Virus record (IMG/VR): IMGVR_UViG_3300023119_000004
Reading direction: 5' to 3' (one strand)
Source of the DNA: a virus
Taxonomy: Duplodnaviria; Caudoviricetes
DNA length: 64,000 bases
Under the pieces are notes generated by a model. The model was not told where the DNA came from, did no database searches, and saw only the letters and a program-made list of their open reading frames with translations. Both the position numbers and the translations under genes were made by a program. This document shows, piece after piece, positions 35,557-53,594 of this stretch; within the stretch, counting starts at the first letter, position 1; each line of letters opens with the position of its first letter.

Positions 35557-37257
35557 TTACTGTTGTGAAGTTGGGTCTTGTTCTTCCGGCTGTGTTTTCT
35601 TGCGGATTTGTTTGTTTTCTACTTTGGTTATGTACGAGGTTGCGTTCGCTCTTTTTTTTTGAAACTCTGGTGTTAACTCTTCTGCGTAAAAAATTCTATT
35701 CTTAGTATCTGGAATATCACTTTCTTCTGTTTCTTTTTCTGCTTCTTTGTTTGCGGCGTCAACCCATTCATTCCATTTGTCTAAGTCTGATGTCATATTA
35801 ACTTCAGGTTCAAGTTCTTTTTGTTCTTCTTCAAAGTTAGGTGGTTCGTTAACTGCTATCTTTTCAGCACGAATTTTTTCATACTCGTCAAAGTTTACTT
35901 CTTTATTGTCATCATCTTGTACTTCAACTTGTTCCATTCGCTGATCATGTTCAGTTGTGTTGGAAGTATCATCCTCTGGTACCACAGTTCCGTCATCTGC
36001 ATCTGCATCATAACTAGGGTCTTGTAAATCTCTATCATCGTCATTATCCTTGTTTGGACCTTCTGGGTCTGACTTTGGGGGCAAACTACCTCCTTTGTCC
36101 TCACGGTACCAATTGAATGTGTACTGTGATGCAATTAGAAGCAATACTGCTAATGGGTCAAACACAAAGATAATAATAATGATTACCCAACGTACTGCCG
36201 CTTCTAATAATGTTTGATCTGCTTGTTCACCGTAGATAAATTCTGCAATATACTTAATAGGTCCTACTTCTGCTTCTAGTTTACGATATTCGCCTTCAAT
36301 TTTATATTTCTGTTCTACTAGTGTATCTATTTCTGTATTAGCATTTTTAATTCTTAATGTTTGTGTATCTATTTCTGCGTCAATGCTATCTGCTTTATCT
36401 GTATTACCTAACTGCTTACGTAATCTGTCAATAAGAGCATTTGATTGTTTAACTTGATCTTCAGCAGTCTTACGTAGACGTTTAATTTCTTCAGCGGCCG
36501 CTTTAGCCTGTGGATTATTTGTTGCTTCTTCAATCTTTTTAATTAGTGCTAAACGTTCTTTCTGTTTTTCGTCTTGCCAGTCGCCAATTTTATCTGCTGT
36601 CTTTTTACCAAAGATGCCATCTGCACTAGCACCAATCATTTGTTGTGCTTTTTTAGTTTCGCCGTTGTCAATATAACCTTGTAGTGTTTCAATTTCGGCA
36701 TCTATTTTAGCAAGTTCACTACGCCATAATGATGCTTGGCTATCAATTATAGCCTGTTGTTCATCGATGGCAGGTTGAATTCTTTTATAAGCATTGTCGA
36801 TACGTTCTTGTTCTTTGTCAATTTGTGATTGTATGTTAGCGTCAGAACCTGTACCGCTTGATTCTAGTTTTTTAATTTGATTTTCTGCACGAACAATAAT
36901 ATCTTCGTTTCGTTTAATTTCGTTCTCAATACGTTCTACTTGTGCAATACTTTCTGTACCTGCACTAGTTTGTTCAATATGTGCTTTAGATAGGAATCCA
37001 AAAATACCCATACTTGTAATAAACATTAATACGAGTACTGCTATAGATAGATACGTCTTAAGCCACCATGCGGCTCTTTCCCAGTTTCGGTGTAACCATA
37101 CTGCTGTAACTAGTTTACCTACTTCTAAAGATACACCCATTACAATAATGGGAATTGCGGCCGCGGCAAATATAGCCACTAAGCCTGCGACACTATAATA
37201 TATTGCTACTGCTGAAATTGTCAGAGCAGAAAAGAATGTTAAAAAACCTAATACCAT
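35557..37257 (-). CDS. Multi-TM coiled-coil protein (DUF4407-like); -1 frameshift isoform ends at 35486
   Basis: N-terminal TMs, GIFGFLSKAH, long coiled coil, VGPIKYIAE, FVFDPLA, acidic tail. Confidence 0.75.
   Translation of the reverse strand: MVLGFLTFFSALTISAVAIYYSVAGLVAIFAAAAIPIIVMGVSLEVGKLVTAVWLHRNWERAAWWLKTYLSIAVLVLMFITSMGIFGFLSKAHIEQTSAGTESIAQVERIENEIKRNEDIIVRAENQIKKLESSGTGSDANIQSQIDKEQERIDNAYKRIQPAIDEQQAIIDSQASLWRSELAKIDAEIETLQGYIDNGETKKAQQMIGASADGIFGKKTADKIGDWQDEKQKERLALIKKIEEATNNPQAKAAAEEIKRLRKTAEDQVKQSNALIDRLRKQLGNTDKADSIDAEIDTQTLRIKNANTEIDTLVEQKYKIEGEYRKLEAEVGPIKYIAEFIYGEQADQTLLEAAVRWVIIIIIFVFDPLAVLLLIASQYTFNWYREDKGGSLPPKSDPEGPNKDNDDDRDLQDPSYDADADDGTVVPEDDTSNTTEHDQRMEQVEVQDDDNKEVNFDEYEKIRAEKIAVNEPPNFEEEQKELEPEVNMTSDLDKWNEWVDAANKEAEKETEESDIPDTKNRIFYAEELTPEFQKKRANATSYITKVENKQIRKKTQPEEQDPTSQQ
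35651..35663 (-). other. Slippery site TTC-A9-G (candidate -1 frameshift/transcriptional slippage)
   Basis: TTT CAA AAA AAA AGA; -1 frame open for 55 codons with no start codon of its own. Confidence 0.65.
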
Positions 37258-37318
37258 GCTGTTCCTTTTTATATACATTATATTTATCGACGCTTTTGAT
37301 ATTAGATAAGTGCTATTT

Positions 37319-37759
37319 TTATCGAATAAAACGCCAACCCTTATGTCCTGACTCTTTACAAGCCGTTTCTTTAAAGTTTCTAGTTTTGCCTTTATATAAC
37401 AATGTACTTGCTAGGGTACGACAATACCCGCTACCTTGCGGATAAGTGGATAGAACTAACACTTTGCCGTTAGTTCCTGTTTGATTATTGTACCATGATG
37501 ACTCTTCGCCATTCTCTAGTGTGTTAAGAGCAAAAAAGATAGATTGTTCTTGTTTTAATCTATCTTCTTGTGGAAGTCTATACCAATGCCACTTACCTAG
37601 ATTAACTAGGATACCTACATACCCGTTGGACGGTTGATATGTTGACTCTACACTAGATAGTGTGCTATCACTTCTATGATATGTATCTTGTGATGTTGTT
37701 GAACACGCCCCTAAAAAACTAGTAAGGACTATTAACAATATACCATCGCGAAGTTTCAT
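37319..37759 (-). CDS. Lipoprotein, RT0821/Lpp0805 (17-kDa antigen C-terminal) family
   Basis: Lipobox LGAC; W.N..TG..G.V......GSGYCR....Y.G.....TACK. Confidence 0.75.
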   Translation of the reverse strand: MKLRDGILLIVLTSFLGACSTTSQDTYHRSDSTLSSVESTYQPSNGYVGILVNLGKWHWYRLPQEDRLKQEQSIFFALNTLENGEESSWYNNQTGTNGKVLVLSTYPQGSGYCRTLASTLLYKGKTRNFKETACKESGHKGWRFIR

Positions 37760-38057
37760 AACTGTTACCCTTTACTAGACAAGCATAGCCTTTACGTTCG
37801 ACCATTTGTCCATTAATGTTAACTTCATACCAATGTTCTCTACAACTTTCTGCTAGACCCATTTTAGGCGGTAGCATCTTTTTAACTACATTGTCACTAC
37901 ATTGGACAATAGTATTACTAGATACTGTCTTACCATCCTTTATTTGGATTGTTTCGTCTGTTTGGCAGTATTGTGGTATATGACTTTTTGTTGCCACTTG
38001 ACCTGTACTGCTACACGCCGACATCAGAATTACAGATAGTAGAAGAACATACTTCAT
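37719..38057 (-). CDS. Cys-rich lipoprotein
   Basis: Lipobox MSAC; four further Cys. Confidence 0.7.
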   Translation of the reverse strand: MKYVLLLSVILMSACSSTGQVATKSHIPQYCQTDETIQIKDGKTVSSNTIVQCSDNVVKKMLPPKMGLAESCREHWYEVNINGQMVERKGYACLVKGNSYETSRWYIVNSPY

Positions 38058-38058
38058 A

Positions 38059-38550
38059 TTACTGAGCCTGCTTTGATTCTAGAATCAGTCTATCAAATAC
38101 CTCTAAAGGCATTTTAATACGAACGTATGTATGAACCCTATTAGTACTTGCTAACTGATAAGAGTACTTCTTAACTTCAAGATGTTCTCTAATAGTTGTG
38201 TCCTTAACAAGGTGTTCAACTCTTGTTGAATCGTTTCGTGTGTCGTTTTTAATGTCAACAACTGTAGATGAATTTACAGTTCCGTTGATTCTTTCTGCAA
38301 AGCCTTTTACTGCGAATGCATAAGCCTGTGATTCACTTGCTTGTTCGTATAGACTTTCGCCCATACCACACGCATAAGCATAATCAGTTTTCCAGAATAA
38401 AAATCCTTCTGCACCAATTTGCTCACAGTCAGCATACCAATTTGGATTTGCCTTTGTTTCTCTAACTTCGAGTGTCTTCATCGATGTACAAGCACCTAAC
38501 ATAGATGCAACTACACCAATTAGTAACACATTCTTTAATGTGCCTTTCAT
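38059..38550 (-). CDS. Lipoprotein (LPP20-like)
   Basis: Lipobox LGAC; P.WY..C...YACG.G.S...A...A. Confidence 0.7.
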   Translation of the reverse strand: MKGTLKNVLLIGVVASMLGACTSMKTLEVRETKANPNWYADCEQIGAEGFLFWKTDYAYACGMGESLYEQASESQAYAFAVKGFAERINGTVNSSTVVDIKNDTRNDSTRVEHLVKDTTIREHLEVKKYSYQLASTNRVHTYVRIKMPLEVFDRLILESKQAQ

Positions 38551-38637
38551 AAATTTAAGCCTCCTTAGCCTATTCGTTTAATTTACTATTACAGTATATA
38601 CAAATATAAATCAAAAGTCAAGTGGAAATTTGCCAAT

Positions 38638-39096
38638 TTAATTTCGACGCATTTGTGCGATTTCTGTGGCTTGTTTCTTACCATTACCGCTATCGTCTTC
38701 AAAAATTGGAACCATATTACTTTTGTGCATTGTAGCAATGCCCAAAAGTTTTCTTTCACCTGTGTACTGCATTGGTTCCTTTTTAGTACAGGGTGAAAAA
38801 CTTGCTGACGTTTGTAAACTTGGAATGTGTTTTGTTTCACGGGTAACAGTTGGGCCACTATAGTGCCACGGTGTATTGATAACAGTTTCTGTTTTGGTTT
38901 TTGGTTTGTATTCTCCGTGAATGTAATCAATGTACTCGTCCAAAGTCATCATTAGTTTATGAAGTCCTTGTTTCTTGTATTCTTTATTTCGAATACGTAA
39001 ATCTTCTTTCCAACGATCTAACTTTGCCTGTGTAATTTTACGCTTCTTCTTAGTTGTGTTAAGAGTAGTTAAGCCTCGAGCCAAATGCATTGTCAT
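38638..39096 (-). CDS. Conserved phage hypothetical protein
   Basis: YTGERKLLGIATMHKSNMVPIF C-terminus; early promoter at 39128-39156. Confidence 0.7.
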   Translation of the reverse strand: MTMHLARGLTTLNTTKKKRKITQAKLDRWKEDLRIRNKEYKKQGLHKLMMTLDEYIDYIHGEYKPKTKTETVINTPWHYSGPTVTRETKHIPSLQTSASFSPCTKKEPMQYTGERKLLGIATMHKSNMVPIFEDDSGNGKKQATEIAQMRRN

Positions 39097-39169
39097 ATTG
39101 TCACCTTTATGTTACATTAACACACTTATTGTAGTATATAGATGACAAAAAGTCAAGTGAAATTTAGCC

Positions 39170-39193
39170 AAAAAAATAGGGCCCGAAGGCCCC
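39170..39193 (-). terminator. Rho-independent terminator after porin
   Basis: GGGGCC-TTCG-GGCCCT hairpin followed by T7. Confidence 0.8.
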
Positions 39194-39209
39194 ATCTTTT
39201 ATTTTAGTA

Positions 39210-40259
39210 TTAGAATTTGTATTTGACGCTTGCCAATACTTGCTGTGTTTCAGCGTGTTCGGCACCAGTAAATACGGAACGTCCACCTTTATCGTGGTAG
39301 TAAAGTCCCATTTCCAACCCGTCCTGTTTGTCAGAACGTTTTGAAGGATCGTAGTTTGTTGCTAGGTTATATACTACACCGTAGTAGTTACCATCATATC
39401 CTAAGTCATCATTTTCAGTTCTGTGTGCTGTAACATAAACGTTTTTGTTTACGTTATACATTACACCGTAATCTAAACGATCGTCTTTTGTATATGTGCC
39501 TGTATTCTTATCGTCCCACAGTTCAACACCCCAAACTAATGGAACGTTCCATCTGTATAAACTACCACCAATTGAATAACCTTCTTGGTCACCTTTGCCT
39601 GAATCTTCAGGAGAAGTAATACGCATATAAGATACATCTGCATAACCCATTAAACTAATTGTACCTGTTGCATAACCTACGTTTCCGTCGTTATCCCAAC
39701 CAAGTGAAACACCCCAAGGCTGTTCTTTCTTTAGTCTATATGAATCAAAATCAAATTCGTTGTCATATTCCCAACCACCAAATGTTAACACAGTTTTTTC
39801 TCTGTGATCAATTCTGTAGTTTGTTTCTGTATAGATTAGTGGAACAGAAATTTTAGGAGTCTTTGCGAATCCCATTCTTTGTGCGTCAGTTTCACCAATG
39901 TACCATCTTGCTACATCATTACCAAAACCTAATTGCTTTTCTTGAACAGTATTGTTTAATGTTGTATCTAATGAATAGTGAGTGTCGTACTTCATTGATG
40001 CCCCAATCCAATCCACTGAAAGTGTTTCAGGAATGTTTGTTGAAATACCTAGTTGCAATTCTGCACGTGAGTCCCAACCTGAATCATAGGTTTTGTCATC
40101 ATAGTAACCTTCTACTTCACCATTTACAAAAAAGCCTTGCGGCAAGTTTGGAATATTATTTTCTAAAGCCTCTACTCTTTCTTCAAGACTTTTGTCATTA
40201 GCCAATGCACCTGTTGCAAATCCAAACAGGATGGCTAACACTAATGTTAGTTGTTTCAT
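39210..40259 (-). CDS. Outer-membrane porin (beta-barrel)
   Basis: Signal peptide ..GALA, short coiled coil, alternating aromatic beta pattern, C-terminal VKYKF beta-signal; late promoter at 40321-40328. Confidence 0.75.
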   Translation of the reverse strand: MKQLTLVLAILFGFATGALANDKSLEERVEALENNIPNLPQGFFVNGEVEGYYDDKTYDSGWDSRAELQLGISTNIPETLSVDWIGASMKYDTHYSLDTTLNNTVQEKQLGFGNDVARWYIGETDAQRMGFAKTPKISVPLIYTETNYRIDHREKTVLTFGGWEYDNEFDFDSYRLKKEQPWGVSLGWDNDGNVGYATGTISLMGYADVSYMRITSPEDSGKGDQEGYSIGGSLYRWNVPLVWGVELWDDKNTGTYTKDDRLDYGVMYNVNKNVYVTAHRTENDDLGYDGNYYGVVYNLATNYDPSKRSDKQDGLEMGLYYHDKGGRSVFTGAEHAETQQVLASVKYKF

Positions 40260-40358
40260 TTTATTTGTTTTTCCTTATCTTTATTCGAATAAAAAAGACA
40301 CCTAGAGTGTCTTCTGCTTTTATTTATGCACTCAAAGAGTGCAGTTGTTTATTTCTGG

Positions 40359-40817
40359 CTAATCCCACAAATTTTCGTAGTACTTGCCAAAAAGTCGGAA
40401 GCCATTTGAAATACGTTTCTGTTCTTTATCTATTTCTTTTTTATCTTCAAGACGCATCCATACATCGTCTTTGTTTGCTTTACAATCGAACGCATATATC
40501 ATTTCGTCAAGGACCCAATCCCAACGCTTAAAATGATTGTCATCTGTTTGGCCTTGATACATTGCACTAATCTGTTCTTTCGGTGGCCACAGTTCTTTTG
40601 GAACATCTTTTTCATCTACATAAGGAGCGCCGTGTTTTGTTTCCTTTAATTGTTTGAGCATAGGTAAGATAATTGGAGCAAGTGTATGATCCATACTCCA
40701 AGTATCCCACTTGTCAATATGTACTTTTACTTTTTGTTCTGGACTGTATCCAAACTTGTCATACAGCCAATTGCTCCACGGCCAATGATCCGGGTACTTT
40801 CCAATTTTAACCTTCAT
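40359..40817 (-). CDS. Conserved phage hypothetical protein
   Basis: DTWSMDHTLAPIILPML...RWDWVLDEMI. Confidence 0.7.
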   Translation of the reverse strand: MKVKIGKYPDHWPWSNWLYDKFGYSPEQKVKVHIDKWDTWSMDHTLAPIILPMLKQLKETKHGAPYVDEKDVPKELWPPKEQISAMYQGQTDDNHFKRWDWVLDEMIYAFDCKANKDDVWMRLEDKKEIDKEQKRISNGFRLFGKYYENLWD

Positions 40818-40995
40818 AACTTACCACCTTTACGTTTTGTTCTTTGCCGGGCAAAGTAAATCCTCCTGCATATTCAAATGCTGTTTCTACATCTTCAAAT
40901 AGAACAGGCTTAAGATTCCAATCGCATTTACCTGTATTCTCTGTTACAAAAATCCAATCGTCTTTACCATCAAGGCAAATCATTATAGCGTACAC
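40807..40995 (-). CDS. Hypothetical protein
   Basis: Tightly packed small ORF. Confidence 0.6.
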   Translation of the reverse strand: MYAIMICLDGKDDWIFVTENTGKCDWNLKPVLFEDVETAFEYAGGFTLPGKEQNVKVVSYEG

Positions 40996-41186
40996 TAGTA
41001 ATCTACCTCTTCAAAACTTTCCTTAATATATGCCATATTGTATTTGGAGGGATAATGTTTTAACAATCTACTTGCTTCTTCTCTAACTGCTCGTGGCACC
41101 CGTGGATACTTCTTAGGATCTCGCAGGTCCATTAGAAATCGTTCTACGTTTAATACTGCATTTGTTCTTTCAATTGGTAATGTCAT
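40995..41186 (-). CDS. Hypothetical protein
   Basis: MTLPIER...VPRAVREEASRLLKHYP. Confidence 0.7.
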   Translation of the reverse strand: MTLPIERTNAVLNVERFLMDLRDPKKYPRVPRAVREEASRLLKHYPSKYNMAYIKESFEEVDY

Positions 41187-41497
41187 AGTTCTACAATCTC
41201 TACACCGTCGCCAAACTTTTCTTTAAGTTCGTTGTAAACGCCAGCATTGCTCATACGCAATCCTTGATAATCTTTACGCAGATTATACACACTTCCGCTG
41301 TCAGTTTCAACTGTGATGTAGTCTTTTTCAACATCAATGTTCATTGTTTTAATAGGACTGCTCATACGCCAACTGTCACCGTATAGATACGAACCACTCC
41401 AGCCTGCGAGAATTTTTTGAAACTGTTCGCCGTTGTGTTTGATTTCTAATACTACCCAAGTATCTGGGGATATACCTTGTTCTGGTTCTAGTTTCAT
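41183..41497 (-). CDS. Hypothetical protein
   Basis: KILAGWSGSYLYGDSWRMSS. Confidence 0.7.
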   Translation of the reverse strand: MKLEPEQGISPDTWVVLEIKHNGEQFQKILAGWSGSYLYGDSWRMSSPIKTMNIDVEKDYITVETDSGSVYNLRKDYQGLRMSNAGVYNELKEKFGDGVEIVEL

Positions 41498-41769
41498 TCT
41501 ATCTCTGCTCCAAAGCCATTTTCAGTAGCGTACAACTTCTTAATTTTTCTACCATCAATTTCCATTCCTAATGCTACAAATGGTCCACCACTTGGATCAA
41601 ACATTCCTAAGTCTAAAGTGTCTATACCTTCAACACCTTCTCGTCCACCATAACGGCAGTATTTCAAACTATCGCCTTCCATAGTAAATTCATATGTGCT
41701 TTCTGATACTTTTGTCCAAGTATAAGAATCACTATATCTATTTGTATATTTTACATCAGATTTAAACAT
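41494..41769 (-). CDS. Hypothetical protein
   Basis: Coupled ORF, DPSGGPF. Confidence 0.65.
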   Translation of the reverse strand: MFKSDVKYTNRYSDSYTWTKVSESTYEFTMEGDSLKYCRYGGREGVEGIDTLDLGMFDPSGGPFVALGMEIDGRKIKKLYATENGFGAEIE

Positions 41770-41953
41770 CGTCTTTTTTCTTTAGGCTCCAATTACCATT
41801 GTCTAATTCTTCCCAGATAAGTGTATCGCCAATGTCCCAACCTACTTGGGCTAATGCTTCTGGGGGGAGTTCTAAATATAATTCTTTTGTCTTGCCATCT
41901 TCTTGAACTTGAACAGTCCAAGAATTTTCACCGGTCTGTATTGGATTTCGTAT
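41762..41953 (-). CDS. AbrB/MazE-like swapped-hairpin small protein
   Basis: LYLELPPEALAQVGWDIGDTLIW. Confidence 0.55.
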   Translation of the reverse strand: MRNPIQTGENSWTVQVQEDGKTKELYLELPPEALAQVGWDIGDTLIWEELDNGNWSLKKKDDV

Positions 41954-41974
41954 CATTGCTGTCACCTTTGATAA

Positions 41975-42296
41975 TTAAAAAGTGCAACTTTTCTGTTGCT
42001 AGGGAAGTTGCCACCCCCGAGTGATTATGCCGCTAGGGCAAAATCCTCAGAAAGACGAACGTCTTTTTGCTCACCGAAGTTTACAAAAGAAACGTTGTCC
42101 AATGCTTTATCGTTTGCATCTATAACGTTTGCTTGATTTACGGTCATCGCCTACCGGTAACTCCACGTTCTCTAGTACATCAGTCGATCCCGATCACCCC
42201 CTCAAAGCACACTCTGTGAATGTGTTTTAAGTGAATGGTGGAGGTGGGGGGAATTGAACCCCCGTCCTGCCTGTGTTCGATTGGCTTCATCGTTAC
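41975..42296 (-). ncRNA. ssrA: Circularly permuted two-piece tmRNA
   Basis: Acceptor piece first (T-arm GGGGG-TTCAATT-CCCCC, CACCTCC-A-CCA ending 42236), 34-nt spacer, then coding piece starting GGGGGTG at 42201. G3:U70 Ala determinant; tag ANDKALDNVSFVNFGEQKDVRLSEDFALAA* at 42117-42025; terminator hairpin near 41975-42010. Confidence 0.92.
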
Positions 42297-42303
42297 AATA
42301 CTT

Positions 42304-42332
42304 ATTTAACTACATTTTAACGCACTTGTCAA
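42304..42332 (-). promoter_or_regulatory. tmRNA promoter TTGACA-N17-TTAAAT (overlaps TAAATA)
   Basis: Hexamer spacing. Confidence 0.6.
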
Positions 42333-42426
42333 CCGATATGACTTCATTAAGTGCTACTTTTTTAAATTTTGGATAAGTAAAATATATTTCAAACCATAAT
42401 TCTAACAATGCGAAAGGATTAATGTT

Positions 42427-42573
42427 ATGGCGAAGTTAGCAAAATCATACGTAAAACACGTAAGAACTCCAAAGAAAACAAGTCAAAGTTCTAGACGTAA
42501 ATCATGTAAAATGAGTTCTATGAACAAACACAAAAAACGTAATCATAAGTTTAATGTGGGACAAGGACGTTAA
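42427..42573 (+). CDS. Small basic protein (48 aa)
   Basis: MAK...PKKTSQ...KMSSMNKHKKRNHKFNVGQGR; SD AAAGGA; TAATG-coupled to next gene. Confidence 0.7.
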   Translation: MAKLAKSYVKHVRTPKKTSQSSRRKSCKMSSMNKHKKRNHKFNVGQGR

Positions 42574-42767
42574 TGGCGGTTAAAAAAATAAAAGGTGTAA
42601 AATCACACAATTACAAAAGATATATTAATGATGTAGAAGTTAAACCAATTAGGTTTGTATTTACTGGTGGTCGTAATTTACTTGCAGGAGCAGTTGATGG
42701 CGAGATAGTTATGGATCAAAATGGAAACCCAGTTCCTTTTCATAATATAGATTGTGATTTTAGATAA
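42573..42767 (+). CDS. Hypothetical protein
   Basis: 64 aa. Confidence 0.65.
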   Translation: MAVKKIKGVKSHNYKRYINDVEVKPIRFVFTGGRNLLAGAVDGEIVMDQNGNPVPFHNIDCDFR

Positions 42768-42769
42768 AA

Positions 42770-42997
42770 TTACTTATTAAAGTTTTCAGGGCGAGTTAAA
42801 TTGCCTGCAATCATTCTGCCTCTATTGTCAACAAGTTCATACTCAAGCATCATCTTATTTTGAATTGCTGTTATATGAGCATCGTTAAAGGCACTGATAT
42901 GAACAAAAACGTCCTGACCACCTTCGACAGGTGTTATAAAGCCATAACCCTTCTTCGAGTCAAACCATTTAAGTTTACCAGTATGTCGTTCTGCCAT
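42770..42997 (-). CDS. cspA: Cold-shock protein
   Basis: GKLKWFDSKKGYGFI (RNP1), DVFVHIS (RNP2). Confidence 0.93.
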   Translation of the reverse strand: MAERHTGKLKWFDSKKGYGFITPVEGGQDVFVHISAFNDAHITAIQNKMMLEYELVDNRGRMIAGNLTRPENFNK

Positions 42998-43121
42998 TTA
43001 TATATTCCTAATTCTCTGTTAAATTATTTAACAAAGTATTTATGCTCTATGCTGGACATTTAAATGCGTAGATACGGCACAGGACGAGCCTGTGCAGTAA
43101 CTACAATTAATAAAGATTGAA

Positions 43122-43301
43122 TTAAAGTGCGTTCTTACGCTCTTGAATTTCAGCACGTCTAGACTTCGCAAGTTTACCAATATTACCTAGTGCTTTTCTT
43201 GCTCTTGCCGCCGCGGCTTTCACGTTTTTTGAATCAAACGCTTCTGCTTCTTTTAAGTAAGCCTCATATTCGGCTACGATTTGTTCATGAATTGAAGACA
43301 T
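43122..43301 (-). CDS. Histone H1-like Hc1-family protein
   Basis: KNVKAAAARARKALGNIGKLAKSRRAEIQ; start ATG 43301 after AAGGAGA. Confidence 0.75.
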   Translation of the reverse strand: MSSIHEQIVAEYEAYLKEAEAFDSKNVKAAAARARKALGNIGKLAKSRRAEIQERKNAL

Positions 43302-43389
43302 AATTTTCTCCTTGTCTATTATAATTATCGCCATATTAAAATCATACTCGCAGATCTGGCGTTACGATGTCTAAAATGGTGAAATTGTT

Positions 43390-45158: not shown

Positions 45159-47489
45159 CTAAATTGTACAACTTTCGCAATGCTCTTCGTCCAAATCTCC
45201 ATTAACCTGAAGTTCTGGTTCAAAACCATTTGGTGTACCTTCAACTCTTGGCTCTTCTTCAATCTCACTTGGATCAGTTTTAAAGTCGTAAGTGTTTTGG
45301 TAGTAACTTGTTTTCCAACCTAGTTTATATGTGGTTAGCATATCTTGTAACATAACACTCATAGGAACTTCATTGTTCTCAAAGTGTGTTGGATTGTATG
45401 ACCAATTACCACTAATTGCTTGATCAAAGAACTTTTGCATAACAGCAACAACATTAATATAACCTTCGTTGCTTGGCATATCCCAAAGCAATGTGTAATA
45501 GTTTTTTAGAGTTTGGTACTGCGGAACAATCTGCTTAAGAGGCCCTTTCTTTGACTTCTTAACGGACAAGTAACCTCTAGGTGGCTCGATGCCATTTGTT
45601 GCGTTCGACACAATGGAACTGCTCTCTGAAGGCATCTGTGCGGACAACGTTGAGTGCCGTAATCCGTGTTCCTTAATATATCTTCTAAGATCTTCCCAAT
45701 CATATTTTAATGTAATATTACATACCTCGTCTAAATCTTTCTTATAATGATCAATTGGAAGTAAGCCGTCTGCATACTTTGTTCTTTCAAAATACTCACA
45801 CTGACCTTTTTCTTTAGCAAGTGTTGCCGAAGCATGAAGCAAGTAATATTGAAATGCTTCTGTTAACTCGTGTACTTTAGTTAGTGCTTTTTTGTCACTA
45901 TATTTAACTTGATTCTTTGCAAGGTAATGTGCTAATCCAATGTATCCAATACCTAATGAACGTCTTGCTTTAGTAGATTTTTCAGCCGCTTCTACTGGAT
46001 AACGTTGATAGTCAATAATTTCATCTAGTGAACGTACAGCAAGATCACATAGGTCTTCTAAGTCATCTAAATTTTTCAATACACCAACGTTAATAGCACT
46101 AAGAATACATAATGCAATTTCACCTTCCTTGTCATCAATATGCTGTAAAGGTTTGGTTGGTAGTGTAATTTCTTGACATAGGTTACTCATGTAAACTGTG
46201 TCTTTAAATGAACTATGTGTGTTAGCATGGTCGACATTCATGATGTAGATACGTCCTGTTTCTGCACGTTCTTTAATCAATGCAGAAAATAAATCCATTG
46301 CTGAAATCTTCTTTTTGCGAAGTGATGTTTTACGCTCATACTTTTCGTATAGTTCTTTAAACTTGTCTTGGTCTGCAAAAAATGCTTCGTACAAATCAGG
46401 TACTTCATGTGGCGAGAAAAGAGTAATATCGCCGTCGGACAATAACCTTTCGTACATTAATTTGTTAAGTTGAATTGAATAATCTAATCTACGTACACGG
46501 TTATCTTCTGTACCTTTGTTATTTTTTAGCACTAGAATATCTTCAATTTCATAATGCCAAATAGGGAAGTGGGTAGTTGCATTACCGCCACGCACTCCGT
46601 TCTGTGTACAACATCTTACAGTTGATTCAAACTTCTTTAGGAACGGAACTACTCCCGTATGTGCAACTTCGCCTCCTCTGATCTTCGAATTGATCGCTCT
46701 AATTCTTCCTGCGTTGATTCCAATACCTGCTCTTTGGGCAGTATAACGTCCAATAGCCATATCACTGCTAAAAATGGAATTGAGAGTATCATCGCTGTCA
46801 ACAAGAACACAAGAAGCAAACTGACGAAGAGGAGTTCGTACACCTGCCATAACAGGGGTGGGGATGTTGATTTTAAAAAGTGAGGTCGCATCGTAATATC
46901 TCCTTACATATGATAGCCTTGTTTCCTTAGGGTATTCAGCAAATAGTGTTGCCGCAATCATCATATACATCATTTGTGGAGATTCAAAAATTTCACCACT
47001 ACTTCTATCTTGTACTAGATACTTGTCAACTACTTGACGCAAACCTGCATAGGTAAAGTTTTCATCACGTTTGTGTTTGATGTATTTGTTAAGTTGTTTA
47101 ATTTCATCTTCAGAATACTTTTCAAGGATAGCAGGATCATACACACCTCTTTCAATATTTTTGTTAATCATTTCTTGTAAAGTGATTGCATTGTATTGAC
47201 CAAAAGATTCTTTATAGATAGGATATAATAAAAGTCTTGCCGCCGCAAATTGATAGTTAGGTGCGTCTAACGAAATAAGATCGTTAGCACTCTTGATTAA
47301 AATTTCTTGAATTTCCGCAGTACTCATACCATCGTAAAACTGAATATTTGCATTCATTTCAATTTGTGAACTACTTACATGAGCAAGTCCTTCACAAGCC
47401 TCTTCCACTACAAAATGAATTTTATTCACGTCGAGTGGCATTAACGATCCATCACGCTTACGAATGTGGATACCTGCGCCGTTTGACAT
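45159..47489 (-). CDS. nrdA: Ribonucleotide reductase class Ia alpha subunit with ATP cone
   Basis: QFASCVL, SNLCQEI, ALCIL, C-terminal CESCTI. Confidence 0.97.
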   Translation of the reverse strand: MSNGAGIHIRKRDGSLMPLDVNKIHFVVEEACEGLAHVSSSQIEMNANIQFYDGMSTAEIQEILIKSANDLISLDAPNYQFAAARLLLYPIYKESFGQYNAITLQEMINKNIERGVYDPAILEKYSEDEIKQLNKYIKHKRDENFTYAGLRQVVDKYLVQDRSSGEIFESPQMMYMMIAATLFAEYPKETRLSYVRRYYDATSLFKINIPTPVMAGVRTPLRQFASCVLVDSDDTLNSIFSSDMAIGRYTAQRAGIGINAGRIRAINSKIRGGEVAHTGVVPFLKKFESTVRCCTQNGVRGGNATTHFPIWHYEIEDILVLKNNKGTEDNRVRRLDYSIQLNKLMYERLLSDGDITLFSPHEVPDLYEAFFADQDKFKELYEKYERKTSLRKKKISAMDLFSALIKERAETGRIYIMNVDHANTHSSFKDTVYMSNLCQEITLPTKPLQHIDDKEGEIALCILSAINVGVLKNLDDLEDLCDLAVRSLDEIIDYQRYPVEAAEKSTKARRSLGIGYIGLAHYLAKNQVKYSDKKALTKVHELTEAFQYYLLHASATLAKEKGQCEYFERTKYADGLLPIDHYKKDLDEVCNITLKYDWEDLRRYIKEHGLRHSTLSAQMPSESSSIVSNATNGIEPPRGYLSVKKSKKGPLKQIVPQYQTLKNYYTLLWDMPSNEGYINVVAVMQKFFDQAISGNWSYNPTHFENNEVPMSVMLQDMLTTYKLGWKTSYYQNTYDFKTDPSEIEEEPRVEGTPNGFEPELQVNGDLDEEHCESCTI

Positions 47490-47541
47490 CTATCTTCTCC
47501 TTAAATTTAATCCTGTTAATCTTTATGATGTTGTAGTGTAT

Positions 47542-47970
47542 TTATTGTAGTGGTATCATTGGATATATGCGTTGTGAAACAATATTAGAGGGTAAATCCG
47601 TCTTTTGGCAAACCTCATTTAGTTTGTAACATAATACATATTGATCGTCAATAATGACCGGGTACATTACCTCATCGTTTATTGTATCTGTACAGATATG
47701 TATCTCAAATTTGCTTTGAGAAAACCTATCAGTTAATTGTAAACTATAACACACTCCAAGGCTATTTGTAAAGTCACAAATTTTATTTTGGCAAAGTAGT
47801 TCCCAAGGATCAGGCCAAGTCTTTTGATCCCAAGGATCAACACTTAATTTACACTTATTAAGTGTGTTATAATGTTTTATCACATCTTCAAAGGGAGTCG
47901 CACTTGTTTCTAAACGTTTTCTAAAGTTTATCCAACTGGAGAGTTTGGTTTCGAAATTTTCTTCTTGCAT
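47542..47970 (-). CDS. Hypothetical protein
   Basis: WPDPWEL conserved-looking motif. Confidence 0.65.
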   Translation of the reverse strand: MQEENFETKLSSWINFRKRLETSATPFEDVIKHYNTLNKCKLSVDPWDQKTWPDPWELLCQNKICDFTNSLGVCYSLQLTDRFSQSKFEIHICTDTINDEVMYPVIIDDQYVLCYKLNEVCQKTDLPSNIVSQRIYPMIPLQ

Positions 47971-49599
47971 TTACGACTTATATTTTACTTTAAAAAGGAT
48001 TGAACCAGTATCACTAGTTGTAGTGTTAATCATTTCGATAACGATTGTATCAGTATTACCATCGCCATCTTCATCCGAAAGAACAGATCTAAACTGTAGA
48101 TTATTTCGAACTGTATCATCACCTAAGAAAGTAAAGTCGTCGCTTGTAGTTGTTGTTCCGTCTGCTCTGTTAACCAAAATGTCCAAGACACCTTCACGTA
48201 GTGCATTCACGTGTGTTGATTTATAAATGTATTCAACTTCAATATTTTTAGATACTTCACCGGATGCTCTTAAAATTCTTACATAACTGTTCTGTTGTGT
48301 AATAGGAATTCTATAAGAAAATCCGTTTTCAAACACCCCTGGACCTTCAATGTCTGGAGTATATTTGTAACCTGAAATTAATGTTTGGTTAAATGACAAG
48401 TCACTTGTTCTATCAAAGAAGTCATTGTTACTGCTGTTCGAAAGAGCAGTACCTTCTGTAAACTTGATAGTTGAATGAATAGCGTTTGCATTAGCGCCAC
48501 CTAAGTTACCAACATTTACAAAACTATTGTTTGAACTAGTATTGTAATTACCAATATTAACTAGGATACCGTGTTGGTCAATATCTCTAAATTTACTATT
48601 TGTTATAAGGTTACGTTGTGGACCATGTAGTTGTCCTTGTGATCCAATAATTGTATTCAAGCCAAGTACAACACCGTGACCTAATGTAACAAAGTCGACA
48701 TTTGAAAATGTATTGTCTACAACATCAAAGTCGGAAAACACACCATAAGCAAAACCTTCGATTAAAACATTATTAATATAGTTGTCGTTAGTGCTTACAC
48801 TTGTCGATAAACTGTTTAACCTAATGCCAATTTGGTCTGCGCCAAGAGCATTGTTTGCTTCCCAGATACCTTTAATTGCTAAATCTTCAAAATGACTGCT
48901 ACGACAACTTTGCAATTTTAATCCTGTGTTAGTCGTTTGTTGTAGTAGTGTTAATCCTTTAATTGTAATCTTTTTTGCTTGATTATTAAATGTACTTGTT
49001 GCATCAAGAGCATAACTGTTTGGACTACTTGCTTCATTAACTGTTTCCATGATAGGAGCATTTGCTGTTTGTACAATAACAGTCTTTTCACTACCTTCAC
49101 CAATAATGTTTGCATTAGGTGGAATTCTTAATGGAGAAGAAAGGTTATATGTTCCTGCTGGAATCACTAACGCAATTCTACTAGGTACACTACCTTTACT
49201 TGCTGGGTTTAAATATAATTCATCAATTGCTCTTTGAAGAAATACTGTTTGATCTGACCCGTCGCCTGTTGCGCCAAAACTTTTAACACTAACTGACTCG
49301 TCTAATCTTTCTTGTAAGGAACGTGTAACAGGATTTGTAATCGTTGGTCCTGTTTGGATAGTATCAATTTCTGCTTTATATTCATAAGTGTCTGCAAAGT
49401 TAAAAAGATTGTCATGTTCAGTAATAACTTTAGTATTACCAACTGCTGGCGATCCTTCTGAAACAGAGCCATTACCAATGTAAAGTTCTCTTGTGTCTAC
49501 TGCCCAACCAAACTCGCCACCTGCTAATTGCGGTACTCCCGAGCCTTGGTTCTTTTGTCCTCTACGGACTTGAATACGTGATATTTGTACTATTGCCAC
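47971..49599 (-). CDS. Virion structural protein (Mtd-N-like N-terminus, pectin-lyase-like beta-helix)
   Basis: MAIVQISRIQVRRG..PQLAGGEFGWAVDTRELYIGNG; VKSFGATGDG; late promoter at 49621-49628. Confidence 0.75.
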   Translation of the reverse strand: MAIVQISRIQVRRGQKNQGSGVPQLAGGEFGWAVDTRELYIGNGSVSEGSPAVGNTKVITEHDNLFNFADTYEYKAEIDTIQTGPTITNPVTRSLQERLDESVSVKSFGATGDGSDQTVFLQRAIDELYLNPASKGSVPSRIALVIPAGTYNLSSPLRIPPNANIIGEGSEKTVIVQTANAPIMETVNEASSPNSYALDATSTFNNQAKKITIKGLTLLQQTTNTGLKLQSCRSSHFEDLAIKGIWEANNALGADQIGIRLNSLSTSVSTNDNYINNVLIEGFAYGVFSDFDVVDNTFSNVDFVTLGHGVVLGLNTIIGSQGQLHGPQRNLITNSKFRDIDQHGILVNIGNYNTSSNNSFVNVGNLGGANANAIHSTIKFTEGTALSNSSNNDFFDRTSDLSFNQTLISGYKYTPDIEGPGVFENGFSYRIPITQQNSYVRILRASGEVSKNIEVEYIYKSTHVNALREGVLDILVNRADGTTTTSDDFTFLGDDTVRNNLQFRSVLSDEDGDGNTDTIVIEMINTTTSDTGSILFKVKYKS

Positions 49600-49623
49600 T
49601 TTGCTATACTCCTTACATAGTAT

Positions 49624-50304
49624 TTATGCAAAACGGTCATAGTACATATATACCCTATCCCACCATTTTGATTCCCAGTGTTTAAATTCGTCTGGTGTTA
49701 GATCAAACTGCTGGTATTGTAGGTCTCTACTGCACATAAACACATGGCCTTCTTTAATGTCGGTGCCATACACTTCGTTGTGTGCAAGAGCATAGGCTAC
49801 AAGTTGTAGGTAATAATCTTCAACCCATTCTTTTTTCTTGGGTTTGTTAGTTTGTTTAAAGTCCATGATAGCCGGCTGGCCTTTGTATGTTCCTACAAGA
49901 TCAGTCGTTCCTGCGTAAATTTGAGGGTGATACAGGTTGATTTCACTACCCCATATTTCGTCTACATCTACCATAGCATTTTCTTTAACTTGCTCAGCCA
50001 TCTTATGTGCTTGTTGCGAATAAGGATTACTTCCTGGGTGTCCCCATTCACCTGTGTCAATATAATCTTCTAAAAATTTGTGCATACGTGTTCCAACACT
50101 TGCGGCTTCAGTAACAATCTCTTGTGCTTTTTGTTCGCCTACACGTTTCTTCCAAGCAATTAGATGTGTCTTGTCTTTTGTTTTATCAAGTATAGTTGTA
50201 ACACTTGCAACAGCATTGCCGTCTGGACAAGCATACAATCGTTTGCCGTCTACTTGCTGTCGTTTGATTTCTTGGTAATCGTATCTATTAGTAATTAAAC
50301 TCAT
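49624..50304 (-). CDS. PD-(D/E)xK exonuclease (lambda-exo/Cas4-like)
   Basis: SVTTIL, GTRMH, YAGTTDL..IMDFKQ, QLVAYA. Confidence 0.88.
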   Translation of the reverse strand: MSLITNRYDYQEIKRQQVDGKRLYACPDGNAVASVTTILDKTKDKTHLIAWKKRVGEQKAQEIVTEAASVGTRMHKFLEDYIDTGEWGHPGSNPYSQQAHKMAEQVKENAMVDVDEIWGSEINLYHPQIYAGTTDLVGTYKGQPAIMDFKQTNKPKKKEWVEDYYLQLVAYALAHNEVYGTDIKEGHVFMCSRDLQYQQFDLTPDEFKHWESKWWDRVYMYYDRFA

Positions 50305-50312
50305 AATTTATC

Positions 50313-50846
50313 CTATTGGGCAGGTTTCCACTTTGCTTCAAAATTAATAACCAAACAACGCCTCTTGTGTTTATAAGGATAAGTTCCGTGATTAACATTA
50401 CCATTCATGATAATTGTTTTGCCAGGTGCTGGTGGAAATTCGTGGAATTCTATTTGTGTATTCGGGTGTGCCATCATGGTATATAGACACCCATCTTGTT
50501 TGAACATTTCATCCTGTTCTTTATGATCAAAGTACATAACTGTACTAATTAGATTTTCTTTGCCTGTATGATTATGAATGCCTTGGTAGCCATAAGGTTT
50601 GTATTCAATATACCAAGATTGATCTGGTTTAATTGATTCTATTGGAATATTTAGGTTTTGTACTTTGTCTAACACCCAGGAAATATATTCAGATGATATC
50701 GAATTAAGATCAATGTCGTGCTGTATTCTATCTGGGTATGTTACAGTTTCTTTAAAACTATCAATCATAATCCTATGCATAATTTCATAGTTATGATATT
50801 CAGTTTCAATTAAAAACTGTCCTTCAGCAAAGTAGTTATTATCCAT
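50313..50846 (-). CDS. 2OG-Fe(II) oxygenase-like
   Basis: SW..Y...GYQGIHNH...HGTYP..RR.LVINF. Confidence 0.7.
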   Translation of the reverse strand: MDNNYFAEGQFLIETEYHNYEIMHRIMIDSFKETVTYPDRIQHDIDLNSISSEYISWVLDKVQNLNIPIESIKPDQSWYIEYKPYGYQGIHNHTGKENLISTVMYFDHKEQDEMFKQDGCLYTMMAHPNTQIEFHEFPPAPGKTIIMNGNVNHGTYPYKHKRRCLVINFEAKWKPAQ

Positions 50847-51660
50847 TCGGAGTGTCCGGATTTAGTTGAGTTTGCATTCCTGGAATTGCTTCGTCTGGTT
50901 TGTAGTATTCAAAATCAAAATCAACAACAAAACTTCTTCTAGGTGCTTTACATGGATATACTCCATGCCATACTCTGCCATCCATTAAGATAGTACGTCC
51001 TGGATACGGACCAAATTGATTGTATAACATAGTACCATCTGGATGTGGCATTAGTGTATAAAGCATTCCGTTCTGAGGAGTCATGCCGTTCTGTGTGCCT
51101 GACACTTCTTGTTGGTCATCCATAAACATAACCATACTAATACATAACGGTCCATGATGATGTATTGCTTGATATCCGTAATCATAATAATCAACACACC
51201 AAGTCTTACTTACTTTAATACTTTTAATAGGTAGCATATATTTACGGATATTTTTCATAACCCATTCACCTAGTTTATTCCAATTAATATCGTCAAACTT
51301 TTCTTTATCAATTGGCGGAAAGTTAGATGCTACTGAAGGTTCAAATTTTGTTTCTTTAAGTGTTTCACTGCTAGGAAAGCCTGCAACCTCTGGACTGTCA
51401 GGATTTAGTTTGTCTGAGCGTACTACTGAACCGCCAAACTGTGGAAGTATAGCAGGTGTAATATCGTATTGGTAACCATTAAACGTTGTTTTGATTTCAC
51501 TTTCATCTTCGCCTCTAAACTTTTCATTTTCAAACAACGGCAAAAACTCTTCGTAGAAAGGACACTTTGCATCAATAATCCACTGATTATTTGCACTATG
51601 GAAATTAGGATCAATACTAAAATCTCTTTGTATATTCTGTCCAACTTTTTTAAATGTCAT
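50839..51660 (-). CDS. 2OG-Fe(II) oxygenase-like, paralogue of neighbour
   Basis: TW..Y...GYQAIHHH...HGVYP..RRSFVVDF. Confidence 0.7.
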   Translation of the reverse strand: MTFKKVGQNIQRDFSIDPNFHSANNQWIIDAKCPFYEEFLPLFENEKFRGEDESEIKTTFNGYQYDITPAILPQFGGSVVRSDKLNPDSPEVAGFPSSETLKETKFEPSVASNFPPIDKEKFDDINWNKLGEWVMKNIRKYMLPIKSIKVSKTWCVDYYDYGYQAIHHHGPLCISMVMFMDDQQEVSGTQNGMTPQNGMLYTLMPHPDGTMLYNQFGPYPGRTILMDGRVWHGVYPCKAPRRSFVVDFDFEYYKPDEAIPGMQTQLNPDTPNG

Positions 51661-51672
51661 TAACTTAACTCC

Positions 51673-52266
51673 TTAAATGCGGAAATAACTTCTGTTCCGT
51701 CCTTCTAGATTAATAGTAAACACAATTCTATCTTCATCTGTTTCATTCTTTTGGGTTTGGTGTGTAAGCCATCCAGGGAAGATTAAAACGTCATTTGTTT
51801 TTACACTAACTTCTCGCCAGTAGTCGTGTATAGTGCTTTTAGGAATACGACTGTATGCTACCCACTTATCTCTTAATAGTTGTTCAAACTCAATATTACC
51901 ACCATTAGGAGGATTAACAACGTATGTGCTTACTACCAAACTTGACGATCCATGATCGTGTGGCATAGTCCATGCACCTTGTTTATGTAGGTTAGTCCAA
52001 CTACCTGTAATAACAATGTCTGAAAAATCAACGTCCCATTCACGTAGAGCAATTTCTAACTTTGGATATAACCATCTAATAAAGTCTTGGTTACATTCCC
52101 ATTCGTGTGGAGGGTTTAGATGTCCTGCTGATGAACGTCCGCCATCTGCTTCAGTCTGATGTAGTTCTGCTTCTTTATCAATATAGGATTTGAACTGTTC
52201 GATGTCGAATCCTGGTTCATAATGATATTTGTATACCAAATTTGGTACTATTGAAACTTCTGACAT
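51673..52266 (-). CDS. 2OG-Fe(II) oxygenase (TIGR02466-like)
   Basis: SWTN..PHDH...FPGWLTH...RIVFTIN; early promoter at 52286-52314. Confidence 0.85.
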   Translation of the reverse strand: MSEVSIVPNLVYKYHYEPGFDIEQFKSYIDKEAELHQTEADGGRSSAGHLNPPHEWECNQDFIRWLYPKLEIALREWDVDFSDIVITGSWTNLHKQGAWTMPHDHGSSSLVVSTYVVNPPNGGNIEFEQLLRDKWVAYSRIPKSTIHDYWREVSVKTNDVLIFPGWLTHQTQKNETDEDRIVFTINLEGRNRSYFRI

Positions 52267-52319
52267 TCTTTACTCCTTGTGCTATAGTATATAACAAAAG
52301 TTACAAGTTGTCAAGTAAA

Positions 52320-52670
52320 TTATGAGAGTGCGTTATCTGTTGCTCTTTGAGCCATTTGGTCAACTTCGCCGTCTGCAGGCTCTTCACCACCTGTCATTGG
52401 TTCTTCGGAGTCTGTTTTAGTTGCAAGTGTTAATCCCTTATCGTCAAAGTTTTTGATAAGTGGTTGAATATCTGGATTAGCATCATAAATCATTTTGAAA
52501 CCATCAAAGTCAAACTGTGGTGCTTTCATATTACGCATGATTTGGTTTAGTGCGTCCCAAGATAGATAGGCAGGCTGATCTTGATTGTCAGCACTACCTA
52601 TCATGTTTCTTAAAACTTTAATGAGAATGTTTTTGGAAGGTTCTTCTTCCTCAGATAACGTTAGGCCTTT
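52320..52670 (-). CDS. -1-frame extension of the scaffold-like protein (ORF track calls it from ATG 52604)
   Basis: Frame open from TTC at 52679 to stop at 52320; no SD before ATG 52604. Confidence 0.6.
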   Translation of the reverse strand, partial: KGLTLSEEEEPSKNILIKVLRNMIGSADNQDQPAYLSWDALNQIMRNMKAPQFDFDGFKMIYDANPDIQPLIKNFDDKGLTLATKTDSEEPMTGGEEPADGEVDQMAQRATDNALS

Positions 52671-53560
52671 TTTTTTGAATCAGTTAATAACTGACCTAAT
52701 CTTCTGCTTCTTAGTACGCTTTCTCGTTTGGCCCTGTCTGCCGTTTCTTCTCCGCCTGTTGCTGGTTCACTTGCGGCAAATTCGTCTGCTACTGGTTCTT
52801 CAGCACCGGCTTCTTGATCAACTGTAGGTTCCATTGCTGGTTCCTCTGCTGGAGCCTCACCTTCTGCTCCTGGCATAGTTTCTGGTCCGCCTTCGCCTGT
52901 TACAATGGCTACGCCACTTGTTAGTGCATCACGAGTTGTTTCGAATGTTGTGTAAAGAGATTCAAGTGCTGGTTTTACAGTATTAACAAATTGCTCACTT
53001 ACTTCTGAACCTAGTTCGTCTCTAATCTTGTCGCCTAGTTCTAGCATTGATTCTGTTTGCATTTCTGCTGTATCTTCCATCCAGCCTGTAATTCTGTCAA
53101 CCATGTCCTTAGCGGCCATGACCAAAGTTGCTTCTTCTTCAGCACCTTCTTTTACTACAGACTCATCTTTCTTGCCAAAGTATTTCTTTTGCTTGTCTGA
53201 CATACCTGAGTCTTTGCCTGATTCTTTATCTTTGATAGCCTTCTTCATAGGCTCTTTTTTGTCACCATCTTTGTCCATATCAAGGAAGTCTGGTTTTGCT
53301 TCATTAGTTTCACGTTCAGAAATTTCAGCGTTAATAACATCAAGGAACATTTTTGCTTTCTGATAAGTGTCGCTAGTGTTTACAGATTCAAACTTTTCAC
53401 TCATTTCAACTTGACTAAGTTGTGTACGTAATCTATTACGTGCATCTTCGAGTTGTTCATTAGTAAACTTCTCTATTGCAATACGTTGTCCAAAGGTCTT
53501 AGCAAGGCTCTCATTTAGCGCCTTTGCTGTTAATGGTTTTCTAAGTTCTTTTAATTTCAT
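52661..53560 (-). CDS. Prohead core/scaffold-like acidic coiled-coil protein
   Basis: E/A-rich; KPDFLDMDKDGDKKEPMKKA motif; late promoter at 53586-53593. Confidence 0.55.
   Translation of the reverse strand: MKLKELRKPLTAKALNESLAKTFGQRIAIEKFTNEQLEDARNRLRTQLSQVEMSEKFESVNTSDTYQKAKMFLDVINAEISERETNEAKPDFLDMDKDGDKKEPMKKAIKDKESGKDSGMSDKQKKYFGKKDESVVKEGAEEEATLVMAAKDMVDRITGWMEDTAEMQTESMLELGDKIRDELGSEVSEQFVNTVKPALESLYTTFETTRDALTSGVAIVTGEGGPETMPGAEGEAPAEEPAMEPTVDQEAGAEEPVADEFAASEPATGGEETADRAKRESVLRSRRLGQLLTDSKKKA
52667..52679 (-). other. Slippery site TTC-A9-G containing A AAA AAG
   Basis: GAT TCA AAA AAA AAG GCC TAA. Confidence 0.7.
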
Positions 53561-53594
53561 AGTTTTTGTTCCTTACGCTTAATGTTATTTATCA

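Follow-up and report, generated by a model that had tools for sequence, protein, structure and literature searches.

Why would a phage whose genes are otherwise cleared of long adenine runs keep two runs of nine, each at a place where one extra base gives the gene a different end, and would it be the RNA polymerase or the ribosome that slips on them? The question is raised by IMG/VR virus record IMGVR_UViG_3300023119_000004, a tailed-phage (Caudoviricetes) sequence of 64,000 nucleotides (nt), hereafter the window, in which a membrane protein gene (site 1) and a gene for a helical acidic protein (site 2) each carry a run of nine A (A9) near the 3' end. A sequence-only reading of this DNA had proposed that one recoding mechanism serves both genes. 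Our analysis indicates that both A9 runs are very probably programmed -1 recoding sites kept by selection and that, given recoding, RNA-polymerase slippage is on balance the probable main agent, which does not exclude a ribosomal contribution.

Two A9 runs that open into the -1 frame

The two runs and the reading frames that meet at them are as follows.

35652..35660, minus strand: putative slip run of site 1, A9, reading GAG TTT CAA AAA AAA AGA
35557..37278, minus strand: site 1 gene in the 0 frame, 573 amino acids (aa), a membrane protein with an acidic tail ending ...SYITKVENKQIRKK...
35486..35651, minus strand: alternative site 1 tail in the -1 frame (product of 597 aa), extending 70 nt past the 0-frame stop
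52668..52676, minus strand: putative slip run of site 2, A9, reading GAT TCA AAA AAA AAG GCC TAA
52661..53560, minus strand: upstream open reading frame (ORF) of site 2, called N, 299 aa, an all-helical acidic protein
52320..52667, minus strand: -1 frame extension, called C, 115 aa and a stop, a winged-helix-like domain

The same 13-mer, TTCAAAAAAAAAG, has exactly two copies in the window, both of them minus-strand (35651-35663 and 52667-52679), just as had been noticed by eye for the two longest homopolymers; its chance expectation in dinucleotide-preserving shuffles is 0.02, and none of 100 shuffles gave two copies. Scanned exhaustively, the 64 kilobases (kb) contain no further homopolymer that reaches 8 nt, the next longest being A7 or T7, which agrees with the earlier statement that all other A/T runs are of 7 nt or shorter. 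Nearly all genes in the region around the runs, and all of those at both sites, are encoded on the minus strand, which makes each run an A9 in the mRNA sense. The coding strand reads TTC-A9-G at both places and opens into the -1 frame at both, in codon phases that do differ (TTT CAA AAA.. at site 1 and GAT TCA AAA.. at site 2). The site 1 run lies 92 nt upstream of the stop of ORF 37278..35557, and the site 2 run at the very end of ORF 53560..52661. One added A extends the site 1 product from 573 to 597 aa and the site 2 product from 299 to 413 aa, bearing out the proposal that runs near gene 3' ends are rescued by a single A, and one A fewer (A8) or two more (A11) gives short tails only at either site.

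Synonymous-codon shuffles of the 94 coding sequences of the window provide a null for run length. They give no excess of A9 over chance, with 2 observed and 3.5 expected, and at other lengths they reveal a deficit: 10 runs of A7 are observed where 26 are expected, none of A8 where 8.7 are expected, and none of A10 or longer where 2.8 are expected. The preferred Lys codon is nevertheless AAA (1031 AAA against 433 AAG). Long A runs are thus strongly purged from the window genes, the two A9 runs excepted. Since the A9 count is not above chance, the weight of these runs rests on their conservation in relatives and not on their number.

Conservation of both junctions in related phages

For site 2 we analysed the best 80 of at least 545 N-related IMG/VR stretches. 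By tblastn, 64 of the 67 unique related loci place C in the -1 frame with respect to N, at 44-79% aa identity, and in all 65 unique -1 loci, the window included, the A run falls inside the overlap of the two open frames (median overlap 37 nt). From the opening of the C frame to 11 codons past the run, 56 of the 65 loci contain no ATG, GTG or TTG, and conservation of the C protein begins directly after the run, with V-x-E followed by LxQVLR. The -1 arrangement, the run inside the overlap and the lack of starts in the C frame give site 2 the signature of programmed recoding, the predicted shifted product being N fused to C, 413 aa, with the junction peptide ...DSKKKGLTLSEEEEPSK.

Run length at site 2 is narrowly distributed, with A9 in 51 of the 64 related loci, A10 in six, A8 in three and A6 in four; the six A10 loci still require a -1 shift. 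The 3' end of the run is fixed as AAA AAG in 58 of the 64, including the A8 variants and the A6 variants, which form a lineage (L052, L065, L071 and L073, about 3900-3970) reading GGA AAA AAG and called A6G below. At the 5' end, the wobble base of a Ser codon is A in about 53 of the 64, making the run 9 long, and two loci (L029, L041) keep A9 with the phase displaced by one. A tandem pair of TC-A9-GACT motifs, 24 nt apart, stands at site 2 in L014 and L015 (context in L090, around 1501-1533); a shift at the first run of the pair hits a stop after 3 nt, and only the second opens into C.

A profile search with the C domain against 1.84 billion proteins returned 612 clusters, nearly all of them called as orphan ORFs of 65-135 aa, many from an internal Met. 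Annotation pipelines thus split site 2 loci into a gene and a short orphan ORF, which means that hundreds of marine phage contigs are mis-annotated here. One N-C fusion was found among the best 150 C-domain clusters (P0139, 376 aa); it is a natural in-frame fusion, the DNA of which reads CC-A11-T at L107:2290-2302, in frame. Five loci of four lineages (L055, L062, L066/L068, L075) have no run and encode C as a separate gene that starts at an ATG of its own.

The N model is all-helical with two disordered acidic stretches, at a predicted local distance difference test score (pLDDT) of 71, and its fold search returns uncharacterised phage proteins only; PHROG 14154, 'virion structural protein', matches it weakly. 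C is modelled as helix-strand-helix-helix-strand-strand (pLDDT 76), with a weak winged-helix likeness in the fold search (MCM8 winged helix, E 0.07), and the domain also occurs N-terminally in longer proteins (P0018, P0005). Searches of Pfam and PHROGs with N and C were nearly empty, a sequence search of the PDB gave no match, and the GenBank phage collection yielded neither gene. That N and C are repeats of each other was ruled out by hhalign.

The site 1 protein consists of three N-terminal transmembrane helices, a coiled coil of about 250 residues, a fourth transmembrane helix (362-384) and the acidic tail, and its N-terminal part has relatives in jumbo phages. A first search found three related loci; pattern scans of contigs and a C-terminal alignment search brought the number to 23 unique loci. 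A9 is kept in 21 of the 23, in 20 of them in the phase CAA AAA AAA Axx, and a distant relative (L138) has A9 in a different phase and retains the -1 motif. The tail of the 0 frame carries the motif (S/T/N)YITKVxNKQ(I/V)R, conserved with synonymous changes (ACC/ACA, AAA/AAG, CGC/CGG/AGA). The tail of the -1 product, VIEPDTYVQNSEQTDNSVWHK in the window (VIEP..QNSEQ..SVW), carries the motif (RPDF)TxV(I/V)EPxxYxQNxEQ..SxW, conserved especially past the 0-frame stop, also with synonymous changes (GAA CCA/GAG CCT; TCC/AGC/TCA, including the TCC/AGC serine switch). These substitution patterns indicate that both tails are under purifying selection and that the overlap is dual-coding. Synonymous changes in both frames argue that both tails are functional, as expected if both isoforms are made. 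One relative (L135, about 1300-1400) has A8 at site 1, a length variant at the DNA level that breaks the usual 0 frame. The site 1 gene of one relative has a second A9 (ATC-A9-C, L086:3808-3816) some 200 nt upstream of site 1; both shifted frames there stop within about 12 codons, and a slip would only truncate the protein.

The two sites also share their 5' flank. The T-C directly 5' of the run (35661-35662 and 52677-52678) is conserved at both in differing codon phases. At site 2 it is part of a Ser TCA codon, used in spite of AGT being more common for Ser. At site 1 the C opens Gln CAA, and the preceding position, which is the wobble base in codons for Ala, Asp, Leu, Pro, Gly or Phe, is T throughout the relatives (L108-L136), a constancy with a joint P of about 0.006 from the codon usage of the window. 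That T-C-A9 is conserved in two codon phases speaks for a reader independent of frame. The 3' base behaves differently: the G at site 2 belongs to the Lys AAG codon that closes the run, and the corresponding base at site 1 is C in 17 of 22 unique relatives keeping the run. The sequence-only reading had taken the full 13-mer as shared and had suggested that conservation of its TTC and G flanks be examined; what the sites have in common is T-C-A9, in both phases, whereas the identity of the full 13-mer in the window is in part coincidental.

Probable polymerase slippage and its alternatives

We propose the following course of events for a large group of uncultured marine T4-like (Kyanoviridae-related) phages that keep both sites. 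Standard decoding would yield the short forms, which are N (299 aa) at site 2 and, at site 1, the 573-aa membrane protein bearing the YITKVENKQIR tail. In some of the expression events one extra A would effectively be read, giving a shifted product, which at site 2 would be N joined to the 115-aa winged-helix-like domain (413 aa) and at site 1 the membrane protein with its tail swapped for VIEP..QNSEQ..SVW (597 aa). Where a run matches the 9-bp RNA:DNA hybrid in length, the nascent RNA could realign and the RNA polymerase insert an extra A, and at site 2 a nascent-RNA hairpin ending 1 nt before the run would help the slippage. The embedded A_AAA_AAG and A_AAA_AAA heptamers probably add some ribosomal -1 shifting. 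Runs of nine A or T slip efficiently in vivo, and nascent hairpins adjacent to the run on its 5' side stimulate slippage (PMC5009743).

The choice of RNA polymerase as the main agent draws on several observations. Length 9 is dominant at both sites in different phases and equals the length of the hybrid; the Ser wobble is held at A to give nine, where seven would do for a ribosomal shift; and L029 and L041 keep A9 with a shifted phase. A further argument is structural and comes from a predicted RNA element of site 2.

52678..52696, minus strand: hairpin of 8 bp with a 3-nt loop, its 3' arm ending 1 nt before the site 2 A9

Within the clade of the window this hairpin shows compensatory changes in four of its eight pairs and 94.8% of cells paired; none of 500 shuffles reaches the observed covariation score, and slid controls are 12-53% paired. 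At the same place upstream of the run, a second subclade carries another stem (AAGTAGC-GAG-GCTACTT and variants). A hairpin that abuts the run and covaries, replaced by another stem in a second subclade, favours slippage. For the 45 nt upstream of the run the overall minimum free energy is weak (z = -0.36), and the hairpin draws its support entirely from the position-specific test and the covariation. The window lacks the usual aids of a ribosomal shift, which also favours slippage: it has no Shine-Dalgarno-like stimulator upstream of the run, such a tetramer lying within 25 nt in only 13 of 55 loci, and no structure downstream of the site 2 run (z = 0.04).

The same DNA as the window is present in salt-marsh metagenomes and metatranscriptomes, and we compared three metatranscriptome runs and one metagenome run over 35000-54000 as assembled contigs, which carry no read counts. 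Across these 19 kb and four runs the sole indel is an extra T after 52667, that is A10 in the mRNA sense, in RNA run X17. The DNA contig (X1) has A9 at site 2, and the difference between the X17 RNA and this DNA is the last point in favour of slippage. The comparison of DNA and cDNA run lengths that the sequence-only reading had called for thus finds A10 in one of three RNA runs and A9 in the DNA contig and the other two. X17 also contains a contig of a co-occurring relative that diverges at 52694 yet carries T9 on the plus strand (ACTTTTTTTTTGAAAG), so more than one marsh strain keeps the run.

Several results weigh against the polymerase as the main agent. Two of the three RNA runs have A9, and words spanning A9 occur in ten RNA runs, a count from only three sampled words from which no ratios are derivable. 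The A10 contig of X17 may itself come from DNA carry-over, from a strain variant, or from slippage in reverse transcription or PCR. The upstream hairpin is clade-specific, 42% of unique loci being below the 10th percentile, and is absent at site 1 of the window. Across the site 2 family, downstream structure is enriched (mean z -1.09, 14 of 55 loci with z < -2), and of the four A6G loci the two folded downstream (L052, L065) have a strong long-range hairpin there, of -17.5 kcal/mol and z about -2.6 to -3. An X_XXY_YYZ heptamer is in phase at both sites of the window, and the four A6G and three A8 relatives always keep A_AAA_AAG in phase.

These same results suit best the strongest alternative, a programmed -1 ribosomal frameshift of the dnaX type, a rival to be taken seriously although we consider it less likely than not as the main agent. 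On this account the mRNA is faithful, tRNA-Lys slips on A_AAA_AAG at site 2 and on A_AAA_AAA at site 1, and the longer run only adds slip positions. The anchoring of the 3' end of the run as AAA AAG in 58 of 64 site 2 loci and the downstream hairpins in a subset of loci, including the A6G lineage, are what it would predict, and A_AAA_AAG is the proven shift site of Escherichia coli dnaX (PMC3711429). It accounts less well for a run held at nine by the Ser wobble A in about 53 of 64 loci, when six or seven would suffice, for the A9 retained in L029 and L041 despite the change of phase, and for the T-C flank conserved in two phases, for which there is no ribosomal rationale; nor does it provide for the A10 RNA contig, and the window has neither the Shine-Dalgarno-like element nor the downstream structure that such a shift would use. 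In known programmed ribosomal frameshifting, an upstream hairpin is an attenuator and not a stimulator. No upstream hairpin was found in the three of the four A6G loci that were folded for it (L052, L065, L073), and the A6G lineage looks like a switch to classical ribosomal frameshifting. Of the shared mechanism proposed at the outset, then, conserved -1 recoding with two isoforms at each gene stands, whereas its transcriptional agent leans on comparative evidence and one A10 RNA contig, against heptamers in phase at both sites and four A6G relatives.

Homopolymer scans, which covered the 64-kb window and five related contigs (343 kb), find in the latter 12 distinct runs of nine or more, six at site 2 (one of them the extra member of a tandem pair) and three at site 1. 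A new candidate recoding site lies at L094:1501-1510 (the IMG/VR contig of L048), reading GTTC-A10-T, where an open frame of about 250 aa ends 13 nt past the A10 and the -1 frame continues for 325 aa. The shorter frame has a DxD motif and looks glycosyltransferase-like, by eye only, and the window has no homologue of this gene. The runs of nine or more in L102 and L106 show no obvious recoding; at the run in L097 the 0 frame stops 2 nt after the run and the -1 frame is open for 175 nt. It is possible that relatives carry, in L094, a third recoding site in another gene, so the earlier suggestion of several proteins under one signal comes down to two genes in the window and perhaps a third in a relative.

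Taking these points together, we tentatively advance a wider proposal, which we think may be right but would not yet bet on: this clade of giant marine T4-like phages would use one frame-independent T-C-A9 cassette, often with an upstream hairpin, that is read by the RNA polymerase and fixes isoform ratios in at least two, perhaps three, unrelated genes; other long A runs would have been purged, and some lineages would have switched to a ribosomal A6G site with a downstream hairpin. If this is true, the family would be a natural series in which transcriptional and translational recoding interconvert at one site.

The second alternative is phase variation at the DNA level, in which replication slippage toggles A9 (off) and A10 (on) within the phage population. 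DNA length variants do exist, as the A8 of site 1 in L135 and the in-frame A11 of site 2 in L107 show, and the A10 contig of X17 could be a strain variant. We nevertheless find phase variation very improbable, because not one of the 64 unique site 2 loci has an in-frame 'on' allele, a -1 shift being required even by the six with A10, and N is fused in only one of the best 150 C-domain clusters; the X1 DNA contig has A9 only, with no indel listed (min_share 1), and selection on both downstream frames at site 1 fits their simultaneous use.

A third view is that nothing is recoded, C being translated alone from a non-canonical or internal start, the site 1 extension not being made and the runs reflecting Lys-rich coding only. 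The five loci in which C is a separate gene speak for it, as does the ATG at codon 21, the first in the C frame of the window. This ATG is not conserved, however, and the conserved domain begins upstream of it; most loci (56 of 65) have no start codon at all in the C frame, the -1 relation and the run are retained across 44-79% identity, the site 1 -1 tail past the stop shows synonymous-only changes, and every other run longer than 7 has been purged. We regard this view as scarcely credible. The last alternative, that the true genome has A10 in ordinary single genes and that the runs are sequencing or assembly errors, was rejected as practically negligible: homopolymers are error-prone on some platforms, but the same A9 and frame break recur across dozens of independent assemblies of different samples, and a separate DNA contig has the A9 too.

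Gene context and known recoding systems

The closest cultured relative of the window is Pelagibacter phage Mosig (Kyanoviridae), which is a partial match only, and blastn matches to cyanophages are short and uninformative. N and C were not found in Mosig, P-TIM68 or S-SCSM1, save for a weak low-complexity match. The window encodes nrdA, 2-oxoglutarate (2OG)-Fe(II) oxygenases, a tail-fibre gene, a ribosomal protein S21 gene, tRNAs and a transfer-messenger RNA (tmRNA). The phage S21 gene (34845-35090, minus strand) lies two genes downstream of the site 1 gene, and the phage tmRNA gene is at 41934-42330 (minus strand); both have roles in translation and might influence how efficiently recoding proceeds. 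The other A6 runs found where genes of the window meet are ordinary start/stop overlaps.

Two motifs bear on when the genes at the sites are expressed.

53586..53593, minus strand: GATAAATA, a T4-late-promoter-like motif 26 nt upstream of the N start codon (motif match only)
37281..37288, minus strand: GATAAATA, a T4-late-promoter-like motif just upstream of the site 1 gene (motif match only)

These matches upstream of both genes make the 'late proteins' of the sequence-only reading possible, but the genes lie among auxiliary and nucleotide-metabolism genes. The true start of the site 1 gene may be residue 8. The minus strand of the window has 15 NATAAATA motifs, of which eight are at most 40 nt upstream of an ORF start; their positions, which include 53593, 49628, 37288, 26898, 24441, 14137 and 2727, are candidate T4-type late promoters.

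If both sites are used as we propose, two widespread proteins, one helical and acidic and one a four-transmembrane coiled-coil membrane protein, each need two C-terminal forms, which offers a handle on their function. The site 2 family supplies well over 60 natural variants of one junction (A6G, A8, A9, A10, in-frame A11 and separate genes), accompanied by hairpins either upstream or downstream, and is thus unusually good material on when evolution picks polymerase slippage and when ribosomal frameshifting.

We found no report in the literature of recoding at these phage sites. The class of mechanism is well known, from Thermus dnaX, the two-ORF dnaX of Chlorobi, insertion sequence (IS) elements and the type III secretion system (T3SS) genes of Shigella and, for the ribosomal form, from E. 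coli dnaX. The closest likeness is to dnaX of Thermus thermophilus (tau/gamma), which has a run of exactly nine, a heterogeneous-mRNA model and two forms sharing an N-terminus, and needs no ribosomal stimulators (PMC5009743; PMC3711429). Unlike in Thermus, standard decoding here would give the short form and the slip the long one, as in the two-ORF dnaX of Chlorobi; the phage genes are unrelated to dnaX, and comparison of sequences shows recoding here, whereas the role of the polymerase is inferred and a heterogeneous mRNA predicted. The T3SS genes of Shigella (spa13, spa33, mxiA, mxiE) likewise have one homopolymer signal at several unrelated genes of one replicon, where it sets isoform ratios or extends proteins (PMC5009743), but that replicon is a virulence plasmid and ours a phage, with two sites in the window and a possible third in L094, all read from sequence. 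IS630 of Roseiflexus resembles site 2 in having a stem-loop directly 5' of the slip motif, known in IS630 to stimulate slippage; the stem-loop here is of 8 bp with a 1-nt spacer and compensatory changes; its motif is T5C5 with a one-base deletion, unlike the A9 and one-base insertion proposed here, and our hairpin occurs only in some site 2 clades and not at site 1 of the window.

Among ribosomal systems, the -1 frameshift of E. coli dnaX has the identical A_AAA_AAG in phase as at site 2, and its downstream hairpin has a counterpart in the A6G relatives. The window differs in having neither the upstream Shine-Dalgarno-like element nor the downstream stem-loop, and the E. coli frameshift yields the shorter of the two forms. 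The tail-assembly chaperones G/GT of phages such as lambda and HK97 offer a conserved two-ORF layout with a minority product that has a C-terminal extension (PMC5009743); the genes are unrelated to ours, which do not lie beside the tape-measure gene and have a homopolymer instead of a site of the G_GGA_AAG type. What sets the phage sites apart from these systems is the depth of their conservation, the recurrence of the proposed cassette in two or more unrelated genes within a single phage lineage, and the series of natural variants at site 2.

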